Shown here piece by piece: positions 1,098-15,646 of a DNA stretch of 64,000 nucleotides. The first letter of the stretch is position 1. Each line of letters opens with the position of its first letter. This DNA is from a virus (lineage: Duplodnaviria > Caudoviricetes), in the IMG/VR virus record IMGVR_UViG_3300011008_000016, positions 96,001 through 160,000 of that record; one strand, given 5' to 3'. The notes under the pieces were generated by a model, which was given only the letters and a program-made list of their open reading frames with translations, was not told where the DNA came from and ran no database searches. Position numbers and translations under genes: made by a program.

Positions 1098-1240
1098 TTT
1101 TATTACCTCCATTAGATTTCGATTATAAATTCGACGGCGGGCTATTAACCATAGCCCGCCGTGGTTTCACAGATTATTCTTGATAACCTAATTTGCTTGG
1201 TTCATTGTTTCAATAACTCTTAATTTGTTGCTCGCAGAAT

Positions 1241-1309
1241 CGTTCACTCGCCCCACACGGGGGCGAGATTGAACGATACGGTCCCTTGTCCCTACGGGAC
1301 TGCGGGACC
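1241..1309 (-). promoter_or_regulatory. Two GC-rich hairpins immediately 3' of the DGR variable region (retrohoming cis elements)
   Basis: On the - strand: GGTCCC..GTCCC-GTA-GGGAC..GGGACC (1309-1280) and CGTTCA..CTCGCCCC-CGTGT-GGGGCGAG-TGAACG (1275-1241), starting 6 nt after the TGA at 1316. Confidence 0.7.
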
Positions 1310-1315
1310 TAGCGA

Positions 1316-1426
1316 TCAACCGATTAAGAAATACGGGCGCACACCGTACGAGTTGGACGCGTGGCTGTAACCGGAATGGCCATGGTAGTTGCAAACCGCA
1401 AAGGTCGTCGAGTGCGCAACGGCTCC
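1316..1426 (-). repeat. DGR variable region (VR) candidate
   Basis: Frame 1426->1316 reads GAVAHSTTFAVCNYHGHSGYSHASNSYGVRPYFLIG*, a C-type-lectin-type C-terminus. Putative variable codons are all NNY. The segment is GC-richer than the rest of the gene. Confidence 0.75.
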
Positions 1427-2526
1427 AGATGAGCAATCTTAGCCGCCGGATTCAGACGGAACAGGTTGAACTGGGTGTTATTTGCTCCGATATCATAGAA
1501 CGAAGAACTCATAACGGTAGAACCATACAAATTCACTTCACTCATCAGACGAAGCTGTAAGCTAACCCATTCCCATCCACTCGCCGCTCCAGTTAAGCCA
1601 GCACCTGCCATAGAAGCACTGTTATTAGAAGCGTTCGAAATTAAACTCTTGTAAGAGAGCAGGTGACTACTTCCAATTACATTAGCAATCGCAGTTGCAT
1701 ATGCAGGAAGCGTTGTAGAATGCATGACTGTTGACTTATATCCACCGGTCACCACATCCGAAGTATTCATCTGAGCGGTTGTCTTGAAGCAGTCCGCAGG
1801 AACAATCGTTGCATGGTGCTTGGTCAACTCCGTATCACCGTTCCCAAGGAAGGTATCAAAGTCAGCCAATACGCACTTAACAACCTCACTACCTCCAATA
1901 GAGGAGTTAATCGTTATTGTGAAAAAGTCACCGATGAATAAATCATCGAAGCTCCCGTCGGCAATCTTAGCACAAATCTGGTCAACCGTATAGATATTGG
2001 CCAGATCCTTTCCTCTAAAGATAGAGTTATGTGCACCGGCATTGCTCTCCACAGACATTCCACCAGTCTGTCCAGATAAACCAGAGATGTTACTCTCAGC
2101 CGTAGTCATCCTTGACTGTAAGCTACTGATATCAGACGTATGGGTGCCAATAGTGGTACCCTGTGTAGAAACGGTACCCTGCAATGTAGAAACATTTCCC
2201 TGAACGGTGGACATGTTGCTCTTTAACGTAGATACGTCGGAGGTCAGAGAAGATACATCCGGAATATCCAGATTGTTTACCGTAGTCTCCAACGTACTAA
2301 CACGCGTTTTCGTGTTTTCAACATCAGCCTTAAACTCCTCAAAGGACAGTACCACATTCTCAGGTACGAATTCCTCTAAGAATTCAGCCTCTGTTCCAGT
2401 AAACCCAAGCCTCTGGGCGATTTCGTAGGAAGATTCTCCTCTGTCCCCAGTGATAGCAGCGATACCTTCGTATTTGCCACTATCGGGATTTACCACTTTA
2501 AGTGTTTCCTTACGAATAGGTAACAT
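1316..2526 (-). pseudogene. Tail fibre/receptor-binding DGR target gene, frameshifted at about 1426
   Basis: Heptad stalk followed by a CLec-type domain (DLFIGD...GGY..S.M...L.SE...YG). The track ORF ends out of frame; the natural GVRPYFLIG* end lies in another frame and the W-x-W-L motif expected before it is missing. Confidence 0.7.
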
Positions 2527-2664: not shown

Positions 2665-4050
2665 TTAAAAATCGTCGTCAACGTCACCGTCACCATCAAC
2701 TGTAGGAACAGAAGAAGGTGTGATAGTTTCTGACTCAGACGAATTTGTCAATGCTTCCAGCTTTGCATCTATATAATCCGTCAGACCGAAGTCTGTCTTG
2801 TAGATGACCACTGGTGTCTTCGCCAAGAAGTAGTACTTCGAGTACGTATAGATTTCTTCATTGTCCTCGATATCTTCCCAATAAATGGTAATCTTGTACT
2901 TCTCCTCGTCCTTAGGGATAAAAACAAACGGCTCCCTATAGACATCCTGCTTCTTGTATGTATCATCAACTGCGTTGAAGACACTAAACTTGATAGCAAT
3001 TCCTTCCGGAATGTAGATGAGCCGCTTCCTATTCTCGATGAATTCATCCGTACAAATTGCATTCCGCCTCTCAGTCCTGTTCCCAATACCATTAATGTAT
3101 CCACTCATGATAAATGGGATTTCAGTTAATTCATTCCCAGAAAGGCTGATTGCATACGGATTTGGTGTAGACCACAGCTTTAAGTCATTGGTCTTGATGA
3201 AGTCCTTAACATTCTCAATCGTAAGATGGTTAATGTCCGTAATGGCAATACGATATTTCTTTGTCGTATCAACACTGGCGATACCATCCGAATTAAGAAT
3301 ATGGGTTGCCGAACTGAAAGTATCATCAGCGTTATACGCCAAGATACCAATTGTCCTAAGACTGGAGCACGAATATTCCACCATATCATCCAAAGTGATA
3401 TAACCCTTTGAACGAACCATGTGGTTATGTGCATTAATCTCAAGACCATTGTAAACGTCAAGTCCGCCGTACTCCCACTCGCATTCTGCAAGGATATCCC
3501 TCAGATATCCGTTCTTGAAAGCGCTGCTATCGGTGAAGGAAACCATACCATTATTGGCATTCCGCATCTCCCTCTGGATTTTCTGGCTACTCCAAGTATC
3601 CTCGTTGCTTACTTCCAAATCTTTGATTTCAGGAATATATACCATTTCATCCCGTTCAGAAGTATCGATCCAAGCCTTTGCAAATGTAGGTGGCTCATTG
3701 TCGCCGACATAGATGTCCCTGTACTTTTTGATTTGTTCACGGACAGCTTCGCCAGCGCTTGAATAGGTCGTTGTACCATCTATTCCAATACGGATATCAG
3801 CAAGTTCTGCATCACCTGTCGTTGACCCGTCAGTTAAGGATACGATCTGGCTAATCCGGTTACGCTCAACCGCTAAATCAGAATTTACCTGATCAATAAG
3901 CGAAGCTAACGTTCCAGATATTGCTTTATTCTTTTCGGTTGCATCTAATGCGTAGAAACCGACTTTATCGATGTTGGAATCATTACGAATCCGATTACCG
4001 AGACGAATCTGTTCCGTAAGACGGTCCATTAATAGATCGTGTAATCGCAT
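2665..4050 (-). CDS. Putative tail/fibre structural protein
   Basis: N-terminal [15 protein letters not shown]...AGEAVREQI segment typical of phage tail proteins; late-type promoter at 4080-4091. Confidence 0.6.
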
Positions 4051-7303: not shown

Positions 7304-8533
7304 TTATTCATCCTCTGTAAGATTTGCATATTCTGCCGATATAAGAACGTACTCGAATAGGAATACTGCAACCATACTGAATTTGTCAATTAATGGATTG
7401 ATGGCTGGTACAAGTGATTGTATTTTTTTGACAATCGCACCACCCTCAAACATGTCAACATGCATTCCAATAAGTTCAAAATCGTGTATAAGTTTATGGA
7501 GTTTCGGCATATCTGTATCACCAACTATAAAGTTTTCTGAATCTGCAAATCCCTGCATCACATGATGAACCAAATTCTCACGAATAGATTCAATAAATGG
7601 ATATATTTCCATGTATCGAGTAATCAACTTATATGCAGCTTCTTCTCCATATGTCACATACGGTAGATAATTATACACGACATTTGAAAATTGAGATGTA
7701 TAAAGTTCATTCATGAATTTATTATCATGGAATTCATATTCCTTCTCAAACTTGAGCGTTGGCAACATAATATATCGCCCATTAGTCATAGCGTCTAAAT
7801 CTTGATATTCTTTAATATCATCAACTAAATATTCACTGTAGCCGTTATGCCAGAATTGTGTCCATGAAATTCCGGAGTAGATAATCTTCTTGAAATAAGT
7901 ATCTATAACGGTAATTTCACATCCTCGGGCAGAAGTAAATAATCTATGGAGAGTTGTCCACATTTCATCGAAATCAAGATGCTTGCTGATAAACGTTTCA
8001 GCTATATGCTTTTCGAAATCTTTATTCCCAGCAGACATAAAGGAGTAATAGGTTTCTGCATCATCCCGTGTTTTGTAAATCCCAAGGACATTGTCAATTT
8101 CAAATGAACCTGGCTCAGAATCATAAACCATATAAGCTTTGATGAATCTATTCCTGATAGGAATCTTTCTTATTCCAGAACCTTGACACTTCTTACAAGA
8201 CGAAATGCCGTCAGCATCTACAACAACTCCAGAACCTTCACAATCTGGACAAACTTCATGTTCAAAATTCATATTATAAATCTCGAATGCTTTTCCATCA
8301 TATATTTTTGAAAATCGAGAATTCATTTCCTTGATAACTTCGTCAGGGTAAGTTTCATGATCCCCTTTTGTATTCATTGTAACTGCATAGAATATTCGAT
8401 CCTTTAAATCTTCTCGGCTCGTAATATCATAGTTACACGTAGGTGGTTCCAGTCTACATCCCCGAGAATGTTTACATATCTCACACATTGGATAGTTACT
8501 ATCTATCCTTGCTTTCATTTTAGTTCGTTTCAT
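7304..8533 (-). CDS. Hypothetical protein with DnaJ-type zinc-finger motifs
   Basis: CPDCEGSG...CKKCQGSG (CxxCxGxG twice) plus an N-terminal Cys cluster; start set to the ATG after SD AAAGGAG. Confidence 0.7.
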   Translation of the reverse strand: MKRTKMKARIDSNYPMCEICKHSRGCRLEPPTCNYDITSREDLKDRIFYAVTMNTKGDHETYPDEVIKEMNSRFSKIYDGKAFEIYNMNFEHEVCPDCEGSGVVVDADGISSCKKCQGSGIRKIPIRNRFIKAYMVYDSEPGSFEIDNVLGIYKTRDDAETYYSFMSAGNKDFEKHIAETFISKHLDFDEMWTTLHRLFTSARGCEITVIDTYFKKIIYSGISWTQFWHNGYSEYLVDDIKEYQDLDAMTNGRYIMLPTLKFEKEYEFHDNKFMNELYTSQFSNVVYNYLPYVTYGEEAAYKLITRYMEIYPFIESIRENLVHHVMQGFADSENFIVGDTDMPKLHKLIHDFELIGMHVDMFEGGAIVKKIQSLVPAINPLIDKFSMVAVFLFEYVLISAEYANLTEDE

Positions 8534-8577
8534 TAATTGAGCTCCTTTCACTTAATTTTATCTTCCAAATAAATTAA

Positions 8578-8611
8578 TTAGTAGGAGCGACATTCATATC
8601 ACTCCTACTAA
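8578..8611 (-). terminator. Terminator closing the SLOG-PARG-MazG operon
   Basis: TTAGTAGGAG / CTCCTACTAA arms. Confidence 0.65.
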
Positions 8612-8621
8612 CGAACTTGTA

Positions 8622-9122
8622 CTACTCCTCGATGATTTCATCTACCGCTTTTGAAACGTCGTACTTTTCCGTATAAATACATTTCTCGTTTTTGAATATA
8701 TCTTCTAATGATAGGACTCTTCCGTCTTTACCATGGATTTCATTTAAGACTTTTTCAGTCACAATCTTATTCAACCTATTCTGCTTGACATAACAAGCCG
8801 CTTGGAAATCTCGGTAACTTATATTGAAAATAACTTTCATCATATCAATACATACTTGAACATCTGCCATTTCTTCTAACAGATTAATGGAGTCACCTTG
8901 ACCTCGGAGAATTTTTGTAAGTGATTTAATTAATTCACTACATTCTTCGATACAGATATGGATATCATTCTCTCCATTGGGCATTTCGGGCATATCTTCT
9001 GGTTTTGCAAGCATCATATGCAATTTATACGTATCCTCAAGTCCTTTTTTCTTAAAAGGTTTCACATACGTCTGAGAAGTAAGCACTTGTTTCAGTTCTT
9101 TGATGAAAGTTTCTCTGTCCAT
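8622..9122 (-). CDS. MazG-like nucleotide pyrophosphohydrolase
   Basis: CIEECSELIKSLTK...LLEEMADVQV pattern; ATG at 9122 overlaps the upstream stop (TAATG), SD GGAGG. Confidence 0.8.
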   Translation of the reverse strand: MDRETFIKELKQVLTSQTYVKPFKKKGLEDTYKLHMMLAKPEDMPEMPNGENDIHICIEECSELIKSLTKILRGQGDSINLLEEMADVQVCIDMMKVIFNISYRDFQAACYVKQNRLNKIVTEKVLNEIHGKDGRVLSLEDIFKNEKCIYTEKYDVSKAVDEIIEE

Positions 9123-10006
9123 TAGTAATCCTCCAGTACTTTTACCCCATACTTCTTTCCAACTTCGCAAAATGCTTTGTAATTGTTATCGTTGTTGTAG
9201 AATGTCCTTGGGATTGCAAAGAATACCTTACGAAATCTATAGGCAAACTTAAACCGACTATCGGTCAAAGTTAGACTATGGAAAAATGAATCGGCTACAT
9301 CCATCGGATCATTTTTAAACACTCCGCAACCAAATGCTCCGAGAATCAAATCCCAGAAATCATAGAGAGATGCTACATTTAATAATGCGACAATTCGCCA
9401 TACCAGCTCGTCAATGTATAGTTCATCACATGAATCGTGACCATTACGTATATAAGCCCCAAGATTTGGAGCAGCCATCGTAATAACTCCAGCCTTTGTA
9501 GTGTCATCGACTTTGTTCTCATCAAGGGTTCTATCTATAAATGTTATCTTGGTAGATATAATGGCATCCGAGCCGTATAAACCATGACTTAACATATTCT
9601 TATGAGGGATATAGAATTCGTCTTTCATAGTATTTAATGAATATATCAGTGTACTATGATGACAAAGAGCCTCTTCTTGGGCAGATGAACCACTATAAAA
9701 CATTCCGCCCGGATGTTTATATGATGCAAAATTCAAAACCCCGACGGGAACATCTTCCGGTTCATTTTTCTTATGTTTAAATAAACAGGACACCGTATCC
9801 GTTGGAACAATATAAATTTCCGCAGGTTTCGCAAAAGTAGTATAAGAATCATCGTCTGGTACTTTTAAAGTTATATTTTCTGAAACGTAGTAAGTATGGT
9901 CTATAGATTCTTTAATTTCGTCAACATAATTGTCCGTGAGATGATTTATCCATTGTTGGGCAAGTACTTGACGATCGTTTTTTGTAAAGCGTGACAAATT
10001 AATCAT
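9122..10006 (-). CDS. TIGR02452/DUF2263 bacterial-type poly(ADP-ribose) glycohydrolase (macrodomain)
   Basis: LNFASYKHPGG...AQEEALC and LILGAFGCGVFKNDP signatures. Confidence 0.88.
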   Translation of the reverse strand: MINLSRFTKNDRQVLAQQWINHLTDNYVDEIKESIDHTYYVSENITLKVPDDDSYTTFAKPAEIYIVPTDTVSCLFKHKKNEPEDVPVGVLNFASYKHPGGMFYSGSSAQEEALCHHSTLIYSLNTMKDEFYIPHKNMLSHGLYGSDAIISTKITFIDRTLDENKVDDTTKAGVITMAAPNLGAYIRNGHDSCDELYIDELVWRIVALLNVASLYDFWDLILGAFGCGVFKNDPMDVADSFFHSLTLTDSRFKFAYRFRKVFFAIPRTFYNNDNNYKAFCEVGKKYGVKVLEDY

Positions 10007-10514
10007 ATATAATTTCTCCCTTTGAATTGATAATGTTCATTACGGGTTTCTTTTTAAAATCGGCATAGGATATACAGTGAAATGTTCCACCCTTCTTCTC
10101 ACCATTCCATACAGCAATAACTTCATCAGAATGATTTACCATATACCGATTACGTTCTTCTAAACATCCTGGAACGTAATCAGAATCGGTTACATAAACT
10201 ACTTCATCTGCCCGTTCCAAAATATTATTGAACCTCCAGATGTCTTCATCGTCGAACCAAGGTTCTGTCAAATTATGACAAGGAACTGCACAATGAAGTT
10301 GTATTTTGTATCCTTTCTTATCCCGTAAGTCTAATACGGCTAATGCAAATACGGTGTCAACTCCGAGAGCCATACCCGTGATAGCCGTTGTACATTCTTT
10401 TTCAACCAGTATTCGTTGAAATACGTCATGTAATTCTACCCACCTGGGATTTCCAAGGTCATAACCATATAGTTTCTTTGGTCTATGACCAGTAACACAA
10501 ATGGTCTTTGCCAT
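9999..10514 (-). CDS. YspA-like SLOG-family protein
   Basis: ICVTGHRP, GMALGVD, RNRYMVNHSDEVIAVWNG, GGT motifs. Confidence 0.88.
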   Translation of the reverse strand: MAKTICVTGHRPKKLYGYDLGNPRWVELHDVFQRILVEKECTTAITGMALGVDTVFALAVLDLRDKKGYKIQLHCAVPCHNLTEPWFDDEDIWRFNNILERADEVVYVTDSDYVPGCLEERNRYMVNHSDEVIAVWNGEKKGGTFHCISYADFKKKPVMNIINSKGEIIYD

Positions 10515-10551
10515 TAATTTTTCCTCCCGTTCTATTTATTTGATAAGAGAA

Positions 10552-10559
10552 TAATATAG
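10552..10559 (-). promoter_or_regulatory. Early-type promoter motif CTATATTA
   Basis: Recurs upstream of about 10 - strand genes; resembles the phiKZ/AR9 early TATATTA element. Confidence 0.6.
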
Positions 10560-10562
10560 TTT

Positions 10563-11126
10563 TCAGAATGCATATAACGAAATAAATACATCTAATGGAT
10601 GTTTATTTTTACGGAAATTCATAGCTACCATAAAAGCGTATGAATCTCCTTTCTTTTCAAATAAGCATACCTTCTCCATCTCTTTCTCACTCCATTCATT
10701 ATAGAATTCAGGAGTTATCTTTAATCCATACTCTGCATAAACGTCATCGGATTGTATCTGAAATTCCTCAGTATCTACATCTAATAGAAAAGCTCGTCTT
10801 TTTCGTACAGCATTCGTACTCTCTGATAAATAAGATGGAAAATAATCTTTAATAGTAGTGGTTTTATTCCAATGAGCAAAAAATACAGCAGCCAATTTTC
10901 CAGTATCTATAGAATATACAGGTACGAGACCAAATAGCCCCTGATTGTATTCTTTTGATACATCATTTTCGTACAGTATTACATGGTCTTGCGGACCATA
11001 CAAAAATTTATCACCAAATGTAAATAAATTTTCAGTTGGTGATTTTTCTTTTATATCGTTAATTGTCTCATATATCATTACGTCAATACGGTATCTTATC
11101 GGTCCCGTTCTGGGCCATCTATCCAT
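10563..11126 (-). CDS. Hypothetical protein
   Basis: 187 aa ORF, SD AAGGAGG, GACA-N6-TA at 11153-11164. Confidence 0.7.
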   Translation of the reverse strand: MDRWPRTGPIRYRIDVMIYETINDIKEKSPTENLFTFGDKFLYGPQDHVILYENDVSKEYNQGLFGLVPVYSIDTGKLAAVFFAHWNKTTTIKDYFPSYLSESTNAVRKRRAFLLDVDTEEFQIQSDDVYAEYGLKITPEFYNEWSEKEMEKVCLFEKKGDSYAFMVAMNFRKNKHPLDVFISLYAF

Positions 11127-11248
11127 GTTATTATCCTCCTTAGGTATAAATTTATTAGTCTGTCAAAATAAGTACAAAAAATAAAAGTAAGGTATCCCAG
11201 TCATTTTCTGGGATACCTTTTCATCATTCGTATAAAAAGTCTGTCGAG

Positions 11249-11572
11249 TCAATTTTGAGCACAGTGTTTGGCAATGTAATTGAAACTGGCATCAGAGCAC
11301 GATGTCATCATTGTCGCATTGTCAGTTTGGTAGAATATATGAAATTCACCATTTCTCAGATTTACAAATACGAGATTGTCACCTCTTCCAACGTAGGTTG
11401 AAACTGGGTTAGGATAAGATTCATTCATTGCCTGTTCCATAGCATGATAAATACCATCAGCTAAGCAAGAAGACCTATTTGCTATCTCTTTAATGATAGA
11501 ACCCATAGTGTTTTCATCTACGTGCTCGGTAACTTCAGCGTATAAGTGTTTTTCGATAGATGGTTCATTCAT
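11249..11572 (-). CDS. Hypothetical protein
   Basis: 107 aa ORF, SD GGGAGG, terminator downstream. Confidence 0.7.
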   Translation of the reverse strand: MNEPSIEKHLYAEVTEHVDENTMGSIIKEIANRSSCLADGIYHAMEQAMNESYPNPVSTYVGRGDNLVFVNLRNGEFHIFYQTDNATMMTSCSDASFNYIAKHCAQN

Positions 11573-11638
11573 CGTATCACACCTCCCTTTCTACCTTAAC
11601 TTTAGATAGATAAAGATAATCTAAAGTCTTGATAAATT

Positions 11639-13699
11639 TTAATACTTCAAATTCAACTTAACTTTATCATATGTGCGGTTAAGTTGATTTCGAATCCTCA
11701 TAAGCTCGTATTTCTTCTGCTTATTGTCATCACCTCTGCTGTCTTCAATTTTCTCGTTGACGATCTGGATTTCATCCTCTAATTCTTTAAGGATTTTTTG
11801 TCTTTCATTTGTGTCCAGATATTTATCGGTAGCAATATAAGCAATGAACGCAATTCCTGCAAGAATTGCAGCAGGAGTAAATACTGTTCCAACAGCGGAC
11901 ATAGCACCTAACCCAATACCACGTTTAATCCAACGCAGAATCTTAGGATAAGCCCATCCGCCTTTCAATATAATGTTCCTACGTTCATTAGCATCTGCTT
12001 GTTTGACTTTTTCAATCTGTTGATTGAAAAACTTTTCCATAGGATCAACGGTTCTTTTGACTGCCTGTCCTACTCCTTCCGTTTTATCCTTTGTAGCAGA
12101 CTTAGCGAATGCCTGATTCGCTTTACTTTCAGCCCGACGAGCCATTTTACCAGTTTTAGAACCACCGGATTCAGACTTTTTGTTGTTGTTCAGATGCTCA
12201 ACTGTTTTATATCCTGCGTATGCACCAACTGCGGTTGCTACCGCATTTATTGCAGGGTTTTCCAATACTGGATCACTGATATCTGTTTCCATAATGAGTA
12301 CAGAACCATCATCGGATTCCTCTACATAATAGTTTTCATTTATAATAGAAGAAACTCTTGCAAATTGAAGCATTGCTTCATTAATTTCTTCATCAGAATC
12401 TGCATCCCAAATATCAGAAAGAACCGTACCAACCCTTCTCGATGCTACAGGGAATGGTGTTAATTCTCCTATTCCTCTTTGGTTTGGACAAAATCCAGTT
12501 TCAGCAGTTGAGGGTGCACATACGGCTGGACCACCAGCGGTTGCCTCTTCTTTCACCTCTTCATAAGCGGAATCCATCACTTCTGCAAATAATTGGTCTA
12601 AATGTTGAAGATTTTCAAGCATCTCCTGGTTGTCTCCACATCTTTTTTGAACAAATTCAAGAACGGCTCCAGTAGTTGCAAGTAAAGGAACATCTTTAAA
12701 GCTTTCATGTGTAAATTCGTATTTCGCTGTATTCTTATAGCAGTTCAAGAACTGTAGCACGGATGTCTTGTCGCAAGTATCTGTTACAATACAAATGACT
12801 CCATGTAACAATCCGTCTCCAGATAACATATCCTGACCGACAATGTTTTCAAACGTTGCAAATAAATCAAGTCCATTATCTTCTGAACTAACAACAGATT
12901 CCATTGTAGGAATTCCTGTAGAAGATTGGTATGTATAATCGGATGGTGCAAGTTCGCCAATCCAAGCAAGCTTTGCCTCCATCGCCATATAGTTTGTTTT
13001 ACCATCTTCTACGTTGCCCAACCTGTTGTTGACTGACTCTAATATAGAGCAGTATGCTTTCAGTTCAGGATTGATATCTGACTGATGTTCCAAGACACCC
13101 TGATTTGCAAGACCAATAAAATCATTCATAGATTCAGAAACTGGAACCATCTTAGCTAGTTTATGAATATCATGAACTCCTTTTCTGGCACAAATCTCAT
13201 TGGTTATTCTATCATACGCTTTTGCCTTTTCAGTTGCGTTGCTTCCATATAAACGATAACCTATACGATCATATTGATTTTGTAATGCGGTTTTTAATAT
13301 TTCGGCAGGCATGACTGTAACAGCATATAGAATTACAGCAATGATTAACGTAAACGTTGTCGTAAGAGTAACTCCTCCCACAATTAACAATCCATCAATT
13401 GTGAGTAAAACTTCGGTAATGTCCTTTCCTCCTTCAGCTAAGAAGTTTAAGACAGCATCACCAAACTTTCTGATGTATTCGTCTCCACTTTCAGCAAAGA
13501 TGGTGGCTTCTCTTTCTATCTCAGCTTTAGGTTTAACGTATTGGCTTCCATCTCCTTTGGATTCCAATATTGACAAAAAGTCTTTATTTTCCAAAAGAAT
13601 GGGAAGCATTTGATGTCTATAGGTGCTTTCCAGAGTTCTGTACTCTTCCATAGTACAGTCTGAAAAACGTATTTTACGTTCTAAATTTGATATAGACAT
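11639..13699 (-). CDS. Putative internal head/virion protein with hydrophobic hairpins
   Basis: Many x-(L/M)-E motifs (ILES, AMEA, TMES, IMET, VLEN) like phiKZ-type prohead-protease sites; two hydrophobic segments; late promoter at 13741-13752; start moved to the ATG after AAGGAGG. Confidence 0.65.
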   Translation of the reverse strand: MSISNLERKIRFSDCTMEEYRTLESTYRHQMLPILLENKDFLSILESKGDGSQYVKPKAEIEREATIFAESGDEYIRKFGDAVLNFLAEGGKDITEVLLTIDGLLIVGGVTLTTTFTLIIAVILYAVTVMPAEILKTALQNQYDRIGYRLYGSNATEKAKAYDRITNEICARKGVHDIHKLAKMVPVSESMNDFIGLANQGVLEHQSDINPELKAYCSILESVNNRLGNVEDGKTNYMAMEAKLAWIGELAPSDYTYQSSTGIPTMESVVSSEDNGLDLFATFENIVGQDMLSGDGLLHGVICIVTDTCDKTSVLQFLNCYKNTAKYEFTHESFKDVPLLATTGAVLEFVQKRCGDNQEMLENLQHLDQLFAEVMDSAYEEVKEEATAGGPAVCAPSTAETGFCPNQRGIGELTPFPVASRRVGTVLSDIWDADSDEEINEAMLQFARVSSIINENYYVEESDDGSVLIMETDISDPVLENPAINAVATAVGAYAGYKTVEHLNNNKKSESGGSKTGKMARRAESKANQAFAKSATKDKTEGVGQAVKRTVDPMEKFFNQQIEKVKQADANERRNIILKGGWAYPKILRWIKRGIGLGAMSAVGTVFTPAAILAGIAFIAYIATDKYLDTNERQKILKELEDEIQIVNEKIEDSRGDDNKQKKYELMRIRNQLNRTYDKVKLNLKY

Positions 13700-13740
13700 T
13701 TCTATTATCCTCCTTCTTAAAATATTCAATCTCAATAGAT

Positions 13741-13824
13741 TAGATATTTGTTCCCTATACCACTATTTATCGCTCTTATATAATCCACCACGGTCTATAA
13801 ATACTTTTTACAAACATCAATATA
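13741..13824. promoter_or_regulatory. Divergent pair of late-type promoters
   Basis: AACA AATATC TA on - (13752-13741) and AACA TCAATA TA on + (13813-13824). Confidence 0.55.
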
Positions 13825-13895
13825 ATTGCAGAATGTGCATCGAAATCAGTTACATGACCTTTTGTAAAATATCTTAGGAAAGGAGGTACTCTTGG

Positions 13896-14429
13896 ATGGC
13901 ATATTCAGAGGAGAAAGATCTAATTCAGAATATGAAAGATCTTGAAGGTCGTATCAACTCTGCTATGAATGAGGTTGACAGTATACGACCGGATATCGAA
14001 ATGATACGATCCATCAAATCTGATCTCGAAAGCCTTTCTGATGCAACAATTGCTGTTGTTAATCAGTATGAGACTACCTTGAGAGATAAAGATGAAGAGT
14101 ATGCTGATTTACTCATCAGATGTAAATCACAATTCAGACAAGTAACAGATGATGTTGAATCCCTTGTCAGTTTGGAAGTGAATTTCACCGACATTAAAGA
14201 TAAGATATTACTGTGCCTTGAGCTCAGTGAGCATATATCGAATTTAGTTAAGGGTCCATTTGTATTAATGAAACCCAATAACTACATTCAGGTAGATGAT
14301 AGGATTCCATATAAACACTATTTAAAGGTTATCGATGCAATTGACATCGATGGCTCTGGAGGTGGGGTTCCTGCCTCTGGTCGTTACATTGTTAGTCCAA
14401 CTCTTGGAATCAGCTATGATGCCAAGTAG
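13896..14429 (+). CDS. Coiled-coil hypothetical virion protein
   Basis: SD AAGGAGG; heptad pattern; first gene of the + strand operon. Confidence 0.7.
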   Translation: MAYSEEKDLIQNMKDLEGRINSAMNEVDSIRPDIEMIRSIKSDLESLSDATIAVVNQYETTLRDKDEEYADLLIRCKSQFRQVTDDVESLVSLEVNFTDIKDKILLCLELSEHISNLVKGPFVLMKPNNYIQVDDRIPYKHYLKVIDAIDIDGSGGGVPASGRYIVSPTLGISYDAK

Positions 14430-14476
14430 TTTGTACTATAAATAAACTAAATTCTTTTTAAGGAAGGAGAACTACT

Positions 14477-15646
14477 ATGAGTGATCTTAATCAGGTAAGG
14501 ATTCAGGTCCTTGACGCAGAAACAGGTACAGTCATCGATAACGTTGATGTGAAGACATCTGACGGTGCTGTCTATCTTCCTGACGGAAGTACCCTTCGTA
14601 GCTGGATTGCCCAGAATGAAGAGGCGTTTTCCGAGTTTCAGCAGAAGGTAACTGCGCACCTTGCAAAGCAGCACGTTGATCCGGCTAAGGTCGATTCCCT
14701 GTTCACGGGTCTGGCTTATAACGGAAATACGGGCGTATTTACAATTACTAAGCACAACGGCGAAACCGAGGAGATTGACACCCTTCTGGAGAAGGTGACG
14801 GTCAACTTTACTCTGGTTGATGGAACCTATGATGCTGTTTCCAATCCGACTGGTGATCCGAGTGCTCAGGACTACTTCGAGGAGAGTGCTGGCTCTTACG
14901 TGGCAACCGAGGATACCGAGGTTCAGGCTGGTAAGACCTACTATGTTGACAATACTGCTCGCGAGTATCTTGCTCTGACGGCTCAGGATGGCACGGTTCA
15001 GAAGCTGGATGTCACGAAGCTGGTTGATGTCTACAAGGGCAGCAATGCAAACGGCATTACCGTTGCGGTTGCGGCTGACAAGACTATCTCTGCTTCTATC
15101 AATGACGATTCTATCAGCTATACGAAGCTTGATGCTGAACTGAAGGCTAAGGTTGATGCTGAGTACAGCCTGCCTGCGGCTACTACGAGTGAGCTTGGTG
15201 GCGTTATCGTTGGTAACGGTCTGGCTGTTGCGAACGATGGAACTATCTCTGCAAACAACATTACTTACGGCGGAAATGCGGTTTCTATGGCTCTGTCTGA
15301 GACTGAGAATACGGTTGTTACTTCTGTTTCCGGTCCTGCTGATGCTGTTGTTACCACGACTGTTGACACGGCGGTTGCTCCTCTGGTTGTTTCCGCTACG
15401 TTCAGCGGAGCTCAGTCTGCGAATGCTTCTGCTACCTATCAGTGGTATAAGAAGACCATCGGCACTGATGTTGCGTTCAGCGCTATTTCTGGTGCTACTG
15501 GTGCAACTCTGGCTGCGGCTAACATCGACGTTACTACCGAGGGAAGCACGATTTACTACTGCGTAGTTGGTGCTACCGGCACTGATGTCGTTGCTGATCC
15601 TGTAACTTCTAAGAGGGTTACGGTTGTTGTAAACGCAGCGGCTTAA
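14477..15646 (+). CDS. Head fibre/decoration protein with C-terminal Ig-like domain
   Basis: LPAATTSELGGVIVG fibre repeat; TYQWYK...ISGATGATL...YYCVV Ig-like pattern; strongly biased codons. Confidence 0.75.
   Translation: MSDLNQVRIQVLDAETGTVIDNVDVKTSDGAVYLPDGSTLRSWIAQNEEAFSEFQQKVTAHLAKQHVDPAKVDSLFTGLAYNGNTGVFTITKHNGETEEIDTLLEKVTVNFTLVDGTYDAVSNPTGDPSAQDYFEESAGSYVATEDTEVQAGKTYYVDNTAREYLALTAQDGTVQKLDVTKLVDVYKGSNANGITVAVAADKTISASINDDSISYTKLDAELKAKVDAEYSLPAATTSELGGVIVGNGLAVANDGTISANNITYGGNAVSMALSETENTVVTSVSGPADAVVTTTVDTAVAPLVVSATFSGAQSANASATYQWYKKTIGTDVAFSAISGATGATLAAANIDVTTEGSTIYYCVVGATGTDVVADPVTSKRVTVVVNAAA

Follow-up and report, generated by a model that had tools for sequence, protein, structure and literature searches.

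Positions 1334–1424 (minus strand) of the window, the 64,000-nt stretch of DNA analysed here (G000:C1:96001-160000 of a single 244,309-bp contig), are very probably the variable repeat (VR) of a complete, cis-encoded DGR in a 244-kb, RNA-polymerase-encoding, metagenome-assembled jumbo phage. The DGR is ordinary in kind; its target hairpin is a variant, and its setting has been little described.

The variable repeat, its template and the cassette

Minus-strand translation of window positions 1316–1426 gives the peptide ...SSGAVAHSTTFAVCNYHGHSGYSHASNSYGVRPYFLIG*, which ends in GVRPYFLIG and is closed by a TGA at 1316–1318; an earlier reading of the sequence alone had quoted this peptide, and our translation reproduced it exactly. 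The frame is offset by 2 from that of the 400-aa fibre ORF that crosses the same bases, and it is missing from the ORF track because it is open for only ~40 codons. The G+C content of this region is 56–60%, against 37% for the genome.

We searched the whole genome with window positions 1200–1520 using a sensitive blastn search, and recovered one other copy of the VR, at 94,260–94,358. This sole match lies off the window, in line with the sequence-only reading, which had found neither a template repeat (TR) nor a reverse transcriptase (RT) within the 64 kb. The 90-nt TR predicted from the VR is present letter for letter at genome positions 94,268–94,357, ~1.65 kb left of the window. It is positioned between an Avd-like gene and a 449-aa RT ORF, which follows the TR directly and supplies the RT that had been expected elsewhere.

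In the ungapped alignment, VR and TR differ at 13/91 positions, and all 13 mismatches fall on TR adenines (28 A per 91 nt; P ~2e-8 for 13 random mismatches all landing on these adenines), with no difference at any of the 63 non-A positions of the TR. Within VR-frame codons only positions 1 and 2 are affected, as the proposed derivation by adenine-only mutation had it. Read in this frame, the TR has 13 AAY codons, 11 of which are altered in the VR; the codons listed beforehand as putative variable sites (CAC ACC GTT AAC TAC CAT CAT GGT TAC AGC CAC AAC TAC) are the VR codons opposite these 13. A possible extension of the VR, to 1428, faces a run of five TR adenines.

Divergence between the two repeats begins directly after CCCG, where the VR has one extra base and a different tail: after the shared GGTGTGCGCCCG, the VR continues TATTTCTTAATCGG and the TR continues ATTTCTTAGACC, a pattern of the IMH versus IMH* type. 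Target and RT searches yielded relatives of this locus from IMG/VR (L002–L011) and from metagenomes (L013–L020, several of them titled human gut), and the same offset between VR and TR ends is seen in L004, L005 and L006.

Table 1. Coordinates of the VR, its target and the associated cassette; L001 coordinates equal the window coordinate + 12,000.
Feature	Window	L001	Strand	Remarks
Variable repeat (VR)	1334–1424		minus	91-nt ungapped block homologous to the TR
IMH-like 3' end	1316–1345		minus	GC-rich GGTGTGCGCCCG (1334–1345, common to the TR), then VR-specific tail TATTTCTTAATCGGT, TGA
Hairpin 1	1280–1309		minus	Additional two-tier GC hairpin, past the stop codon and before hairpin 2
Hairpin 2	1239–1277		minus	Outer 8-bp stem, 2-nt bulge, inner 8-bp GC stem CTCGCCCC/GGGGCGAG
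Break point	1424–1431		minus	CATCTGG|AGCC joins the fibre ORF and the VR in different frames
DGR target gene	1324–2526	13324–14526	minus	400-aa ORF: fibre-like N-terminus, coiled coil, predicted C-type-lectin-like head
83-aa ORF	861–1112	12861–13112	minus	phrog_17180, E 1.9e-12; travels with the cassette
Fibre paralogue	2–679 (N-terminal part)	11318–12679	minus	453 aa in full, running past the window's left edge; non-diversified; between the small ORF and Avd
Avd-like protein		10417–11259	minus	280 aa
TR		10268–10358	minus
RT		8906–10255	minus	449 aa
Amidase endolysin		7966–8793	minus

On the minus strand, the target fibre gene with its VR is followed by the small ORF, a fibre paralogue, the likely Avd gene, the TR, a structured spacer and the RT, with the TR, spacer and RT lying 1.6–3.1 kb left of the window (Table 1). 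Two alternatives for the module had been offered at the outset, and the second is correct: it sits just left of the window (genome 92.9–95.3 kb), and the VR is not a remote or trans target. Nor is the VR an orphan, as it had been labelled, because TR, likely Avd and RT are encoded in cis, on the VR's own contig and strand and 3.07 kb downstream of it, and the layout is likewise linked in L004 and L006; a VR with no cassette of its own, dependent on a DGR at another site in the phage or host, is a reading that the window invites by lacking both TR and RT but that we consider highly improbable. The gene order is target, Avd, TR, RT and small ORF in L004, and target, small ORF, Avd, TR and RT in L006, indicating that an extra fibre paralogue was inserted in the window's genome. 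Homologues of the 83-aa ORF adjoin the cassette in both relatives (L004, 5351–5638; L006, 4370–4600). We rejected the fibre paralogue beside Avd as a second VR: its 3' end is AT-rich, its best local TR match extends over 14 nt, and it has neither a GC-rich end nor a hairpin. A megablast search with the cassette against GenBank phages gave no match.

The RT matched RVT_1 (3.7e-18) and phrog_1423 (6e-66), and contains YMDD and IGSQISQ. The latter has the form I-G-x-x-x-S-Q, a motif that marks DGR RTs. The true start of the RT is probably a Met ~45 codons into the listed ORF. The 280-aa protein is likely to be Avd: it has a weak match to phrog_3206, 'Avd protein of DGR' (2e-4), its structural model is a helical bundle (mean pLDDT 67) that matched the S23-family four-helix bundle 2rld_B with a probability of 0.99 (TM 0.79, E 0.8), and a homologue lies upstream of the TR in the four relatives with ORFs listed, L004, L006 and L008 among them. 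Sequence searches of Pfam, NCBIfam and the PDB found no match for it. The Avd-like protein varies in length, from 280 aa here through 268 aa (L006) and 242 aa (L008) to 182 aa (L004); its additional C-terminal part is rich in Lys and Glu and modelled with low confidence.

Between the TR and the likely start of the RT lie ~140 nt (L001:10100-10275; genome 94,100–94,275, minus strand) that are strongly conserved in six relatives; their folded helices are conserved too and show compensatory changes. In this spacer, TAAGAAAGG is paired with the TR end GATTTCTTA, a pairing that explains the one-base difference between the TR end and the VR end. The segment is probably the DGR spacer RNA.

Duplication extends to the gene upstream of the target. 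This 461-aa gene (window 2665–4050, minus strand) has an N-terminally shorter, 395-aa paralogue (L001:5925-7112, minus strand) that adjoins a tyrosine recombinase (L001:4686-5693), just past the RT and endolysin. Taken together with the fibre paralogue, this pair indicates that both fibre-module genes have been duplicated around the DGR.

Target head and downstream hairpins

The 400-aa ORF crosses the VR in the wrong frame and ends 8 nt before the stop of the VR frame. We describe the target head from P0121, a 415-aa protein from another metagenome assembly (a 52,682-bp ENA contig) that falls in the 90% cluster of the 400-aa ORF and represents an intact allele. Homologues of the target number >1400. 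The P0121 model, for which 45 homologues were used, has a mean pLDDT of 86. Foldseek on the whole fibre model returned weak rows only; the structural match was obtained with the full VIA scan, in which residues 178–415 matched 9qa6_A (Z 14.1, 178 residues, 2.9 A) and 8q4e_A (Z 7.3, 122/131 residues). The head, which carries the VR on its C-terminal strands, is predicted from these superpositions to adopt a C-type-lectin-like fold. The two structures are the N-terminal domain of Thomasclavelia ramosa IgAse (9qa6) and the C-terminal domain of Legionella Lcl (8q4e), which superpose on the predicted target head at 14–15% identity; neither IgAse nor Lcl is a known DGR target. The T. ramosa domain has been described as a C-type-lectin-like core resembling 8q4e (PMC12237041). 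Mtd and TvpA were absent among the matches listed for the P0121 model, residues 348–414 had a marginal match to Pfam DUF6273 (5e-4, below the cut-off), and a PDB sequence search with target and Avd profiles returned nothing useful. A search of 185,579 prokaryote genomes recovered no relative of the target and so gives no hint of the host.

A third lectin-like paralogue is encoded on the plus strand at genome positions 79,200–79,980, ~16 kb left of the window, and ends ..EWYWMQNR..FAICYHDG..GVRPFFQI. We rejected it as a target of the TR, since only 26/47 non-A positions match. It is trailed by a hairpin with the outer stem of hairpin 2, ATCGTTCA..TGAACGAT; these are the genome's only two such hairpins.

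Two GC-rich hairpins had been noted behind the VR stop codon, and we recovered both (Table 1). The DNA fold of the post-stop region has a free energy of −33.9 kcal/mol, versus −14.4 ± 2.4 for shuffles (z = −8.1), with 0/200 shuffles as stable, and the RNA fold agrees with it. The inner part of hairpin 2 (1247–1267) has the 5-nt loop CGTGT, and AATCT precedes the hairpin. A GC-rich hairpin of this type, with a 5-nt loop and usually after AATCT, stands behind each VR at nine loci; across their alignment 94% of cells are paired, 4/8 pairs show compensatory changes, the covariation score was reached by 0/500 shuffles, and no slid register came near it. Hairpin 2 is the predicted target hairpin, conserved throughout the family, with a counterpart in all nine relatives. 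At the position of hairpin 1, a hairpin of different sequence is found only in the closest relative, L005, and is absent from the other relatives. Hairpin 2 starts 66 nt past the GC-rich end, compared with 28–39 nt in relatives without hairpin 1. We rejected plain intrinsic terminators as an account of the hairpins, which were not called by the terminator scan and have no T run after them.

The proposed architecture of a DGR target is borne out, with the VR at the C-terminus of a predicted C-type-lectin-like tail-fibre protein, an IMH-like end and a hairpin in cis. By analogy with Bordetella phage BPP-1, we infer how the DGR acts on this VR. RNA spanning the TR and spacer would be reverse-transcribed by an RT–Avd complex, with misincorporation opposite adenines, and the mutagenised cDNA would replace the VR, to which it would be directed by the GC-rich IMH-like end together with the conserved GC hairpin downstream. 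Thirteen AAY codons would be rewritten in this way, in what would be the ligand-binding face of the C-type-lectin-like fibre head.

Variation among relatives and a frame break at the VR edge

Eight relatives have both repeats (L004–L011), and at each of these loci VR and TR mismatch at 9–20 adenines and at 0–1 other positions. Three of the eight are on contigs of 229, 220 and 239 kb; the family also occurs on smaller human-gut phage contigs. For the L004-type relative, intact TR copies are identical in 5/5 contigs (L004, L014–L017). Its VR was recovered from 11 contigs, once in each and in some cases truncated at a contig end; apart from indels and one shared T/C difference, these VR copies vary among themselves and against the TR at TR-A positions only. 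Comparison of P0121 with the window protein gave a similar picture: 1 of the first 367 residues differs, as do 5/35 VR residues, all at AAY codons. VR copies thus appear, from these comparisons of assembled copies, to have been diversified in nature while the TR stays invariant. P0121 and the window VR share non-TR residues at seven positions, which is unlike the outcome of independent full-length homing; selection, a mixed-population consensus or partial replacement must be invoked. The TR copy of L020 is itself altered at adenine positions. Faulty VR assemblies were seen in L013, L014, L015, L018 and L020 and at the contig ends of G001 (L021, L005), a 229-kb contig with both its start and its end within the VR.

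In P0121 and in the relatives the VR is in frame with the target, and the split target of G001 likewise uses one frame throughout; in the window assembly the VR is out of frame. At the point where the intact allele has ..KIAHLGNGSTTRQWYWLSAVAN.., the window continues as ..KIAHL before shifting frame. By back-reading codons from the P0121 protein, we placed the loss of 37 nt of the intact allele between window positions 1425 and 1424, directly before the first TR-homologous base; L004, L006 and L008 each have 34 nt more than the window in the interval from NPAA.IA to the first VR codons. The missing bases include a conserved Trp motif, WYWLS, that is absent from the window in all three frames. 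Hence, the loss of 37 nt at the 5' edge of the VR both puts the VR out of frame and removes the WYWLS motif, and the target of the window assembly cannot be translated as a VR-bearing protein. An exact search for the 29-mer from just upstream of the break found no copy in viral contigs.

We lean towards the view that the window's target copy is a real defective variant. The missing 37 nt belong to the non-variable part just upstream of the VR, and no long flanking repeat is present for a k-mer assembler to collapse, which favours a real deletion in at least some molecules. These two features argue against an assembly artefact, in which the population carries an intact target and reads were mis-joined at the hypervariable edge; we nonetheless regard such an artefact as a serious contender, if short of probable. 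The genome was assembled from a metagenome and its ends overlap, and the same phage has an intact allele (P0121). Faulty VR assemblies are frequent in relatives, with indels (+2, +11, +1) in 3/~8 VRs assembled at both ends, and among related contigs one has a VR fused to the TR 3' flank, one a mutated 'TR', and one, of 229 kb, is broken inside the VR. We therefore caution that metagenome VRs of this DGR family are often frameshifted or chimeric, and that a broken DGR target in a MAG is not to be taken as biology before a read check.

If the deletion is real, it could have been made by the DGR itself, although we think this unlikely. The adenine-rich 5' end of the TR, AAAAAGCC, read as CTGGAGCC in the VR, would have been mutagenised to CTGGA and would pair with a 4-nt match, CTGG (..CAT CTG GGN..), 37 nt upstream, and off-register cDNA would integrate at this CTGG, removing the intervening target sequence. 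The junction CATCTGG|AGCC fits such an event; at His-Leu-Gly the intact allele must have CTGG; the break abuts the first TR-homologous base; and in BPP-1 the upstream cDNA junction is homology-dependent, with cryptic sites usable (PMC3240598). CTGG is also a possible mutagenised copy of the TR A run. However, a 4-nt match is weak evidence, the break points were derived from a protein, and integration would normally be expected to anchor on the A-poor GCCGTTGCG, which lies just inside the VR. It is accordingly a doubtful proposition that off-register retrohoming left the 37-nt deletion as a natural scar, the element having thereby disabled its own target with the non-diversified paralogue fibre remaining as a backup. 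Were it true, the scar would illustrate in the field what DGR mutagenesis can cost, as well as the homology rule that applies to the upstream cDNA junction. A programmed ribosomal frameshift linking the fibre ORF to the VR frame is barely credible: both frames are open across the overlap, but this short overlap has no slippery heptamer, every relative and the intact allele use one frame with 34–37 more bases including the Trp motif, and the absence of that motif here in all frames excludes such a link.

Comparison with known systems and phage setting

The element resembles the DGR of Bordetella phage BPP-1 (mtd VR, avd, TR, brt) in the order of its likely avd, TR and RT; in a VR at the 3' end of a tail-fibre gene with a head of the C-type-lectin type, as predicted here; in adenine-only VR/TR differences at AAY codons; in a GC-rich end common to VR and TR that is followed by VR-specific sequence; and in a GC-rich hairpin behind the VR whose stem varies by compensatory changes. 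The target rules described for the BPP-1 type are a 7–10 bp GC stem and a 4-nt GRNA loop, 4–34 bp from the VR (Guo et al. 2011, PMC3240598). By contrast, the hairpin loop here is of 5 nt (YNYRY), and the hairpin lies 66 nt from the GC-rich end, beyond the published range, with a second hairpin between. The element also differs from that of BPP-1 in the fibre paralogue and small ORF between target and avd, in a likely Avd of 280 aa with a long C-terminal extension, and in a target allele that is broken in the window assembly. BPP-1 is a temperate, 42-kb phage, whereas the phage studied here is of 244 kb and encodes an RNA polymerase subunit. The nine-locus family, with its 5-nt-loop hairpin, AATCT box and conserved spacer RNA, is suited to testing target-site rules unlike those of BPP-1.

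With DGRs of human-gut phages (MGV, PMC8241571; Hankyphage; IMG/VR survey, PMC8144416), the element shares the human-gut habitat of its relatives, the kind of target (a weak DUF6273 match), and a TR that is invariant while the VR is variable across samples. It differs from them in being conserved in a clade of 220–245 kb genomes. In MGV, gut-phage DGRs number in the tens of thousands and are commonest in lysogenic Myoviridae-annotated viruses, and jumbo phages are not singled out (PMC8241571). No DGR-type lectin domain turned up in a survey of 224 jumbo phages (PMC7824862), and DGRs and reverse transcriptases go unmentioned in a jumbo-phage review from 2026 (PMC13282480). The sequence-only reading, noting that DGRs are mostly described in temperate phages, had called one in a phage with, on its account, two RNA polymerases notable. 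That notability is genuine, though only moderate. The finding is of value in showing that a clade of 220–245 kb, RNA-polymerase-encoding gut phages has conserved a canonical DGR within its host-recognition apparatus.

The window itself encodes a phage-type RNA polymerase beta subunit, topoisomerase II, NAD ligase, SbcC and DnaB. The two ends of the genome (1–80 and 244,230–244,309) share ~70 nt, and a run of 16 N is present at 209,141–209,156; the shared ends suggest that the contig is a circular or terminally redundant metagenome assembly.
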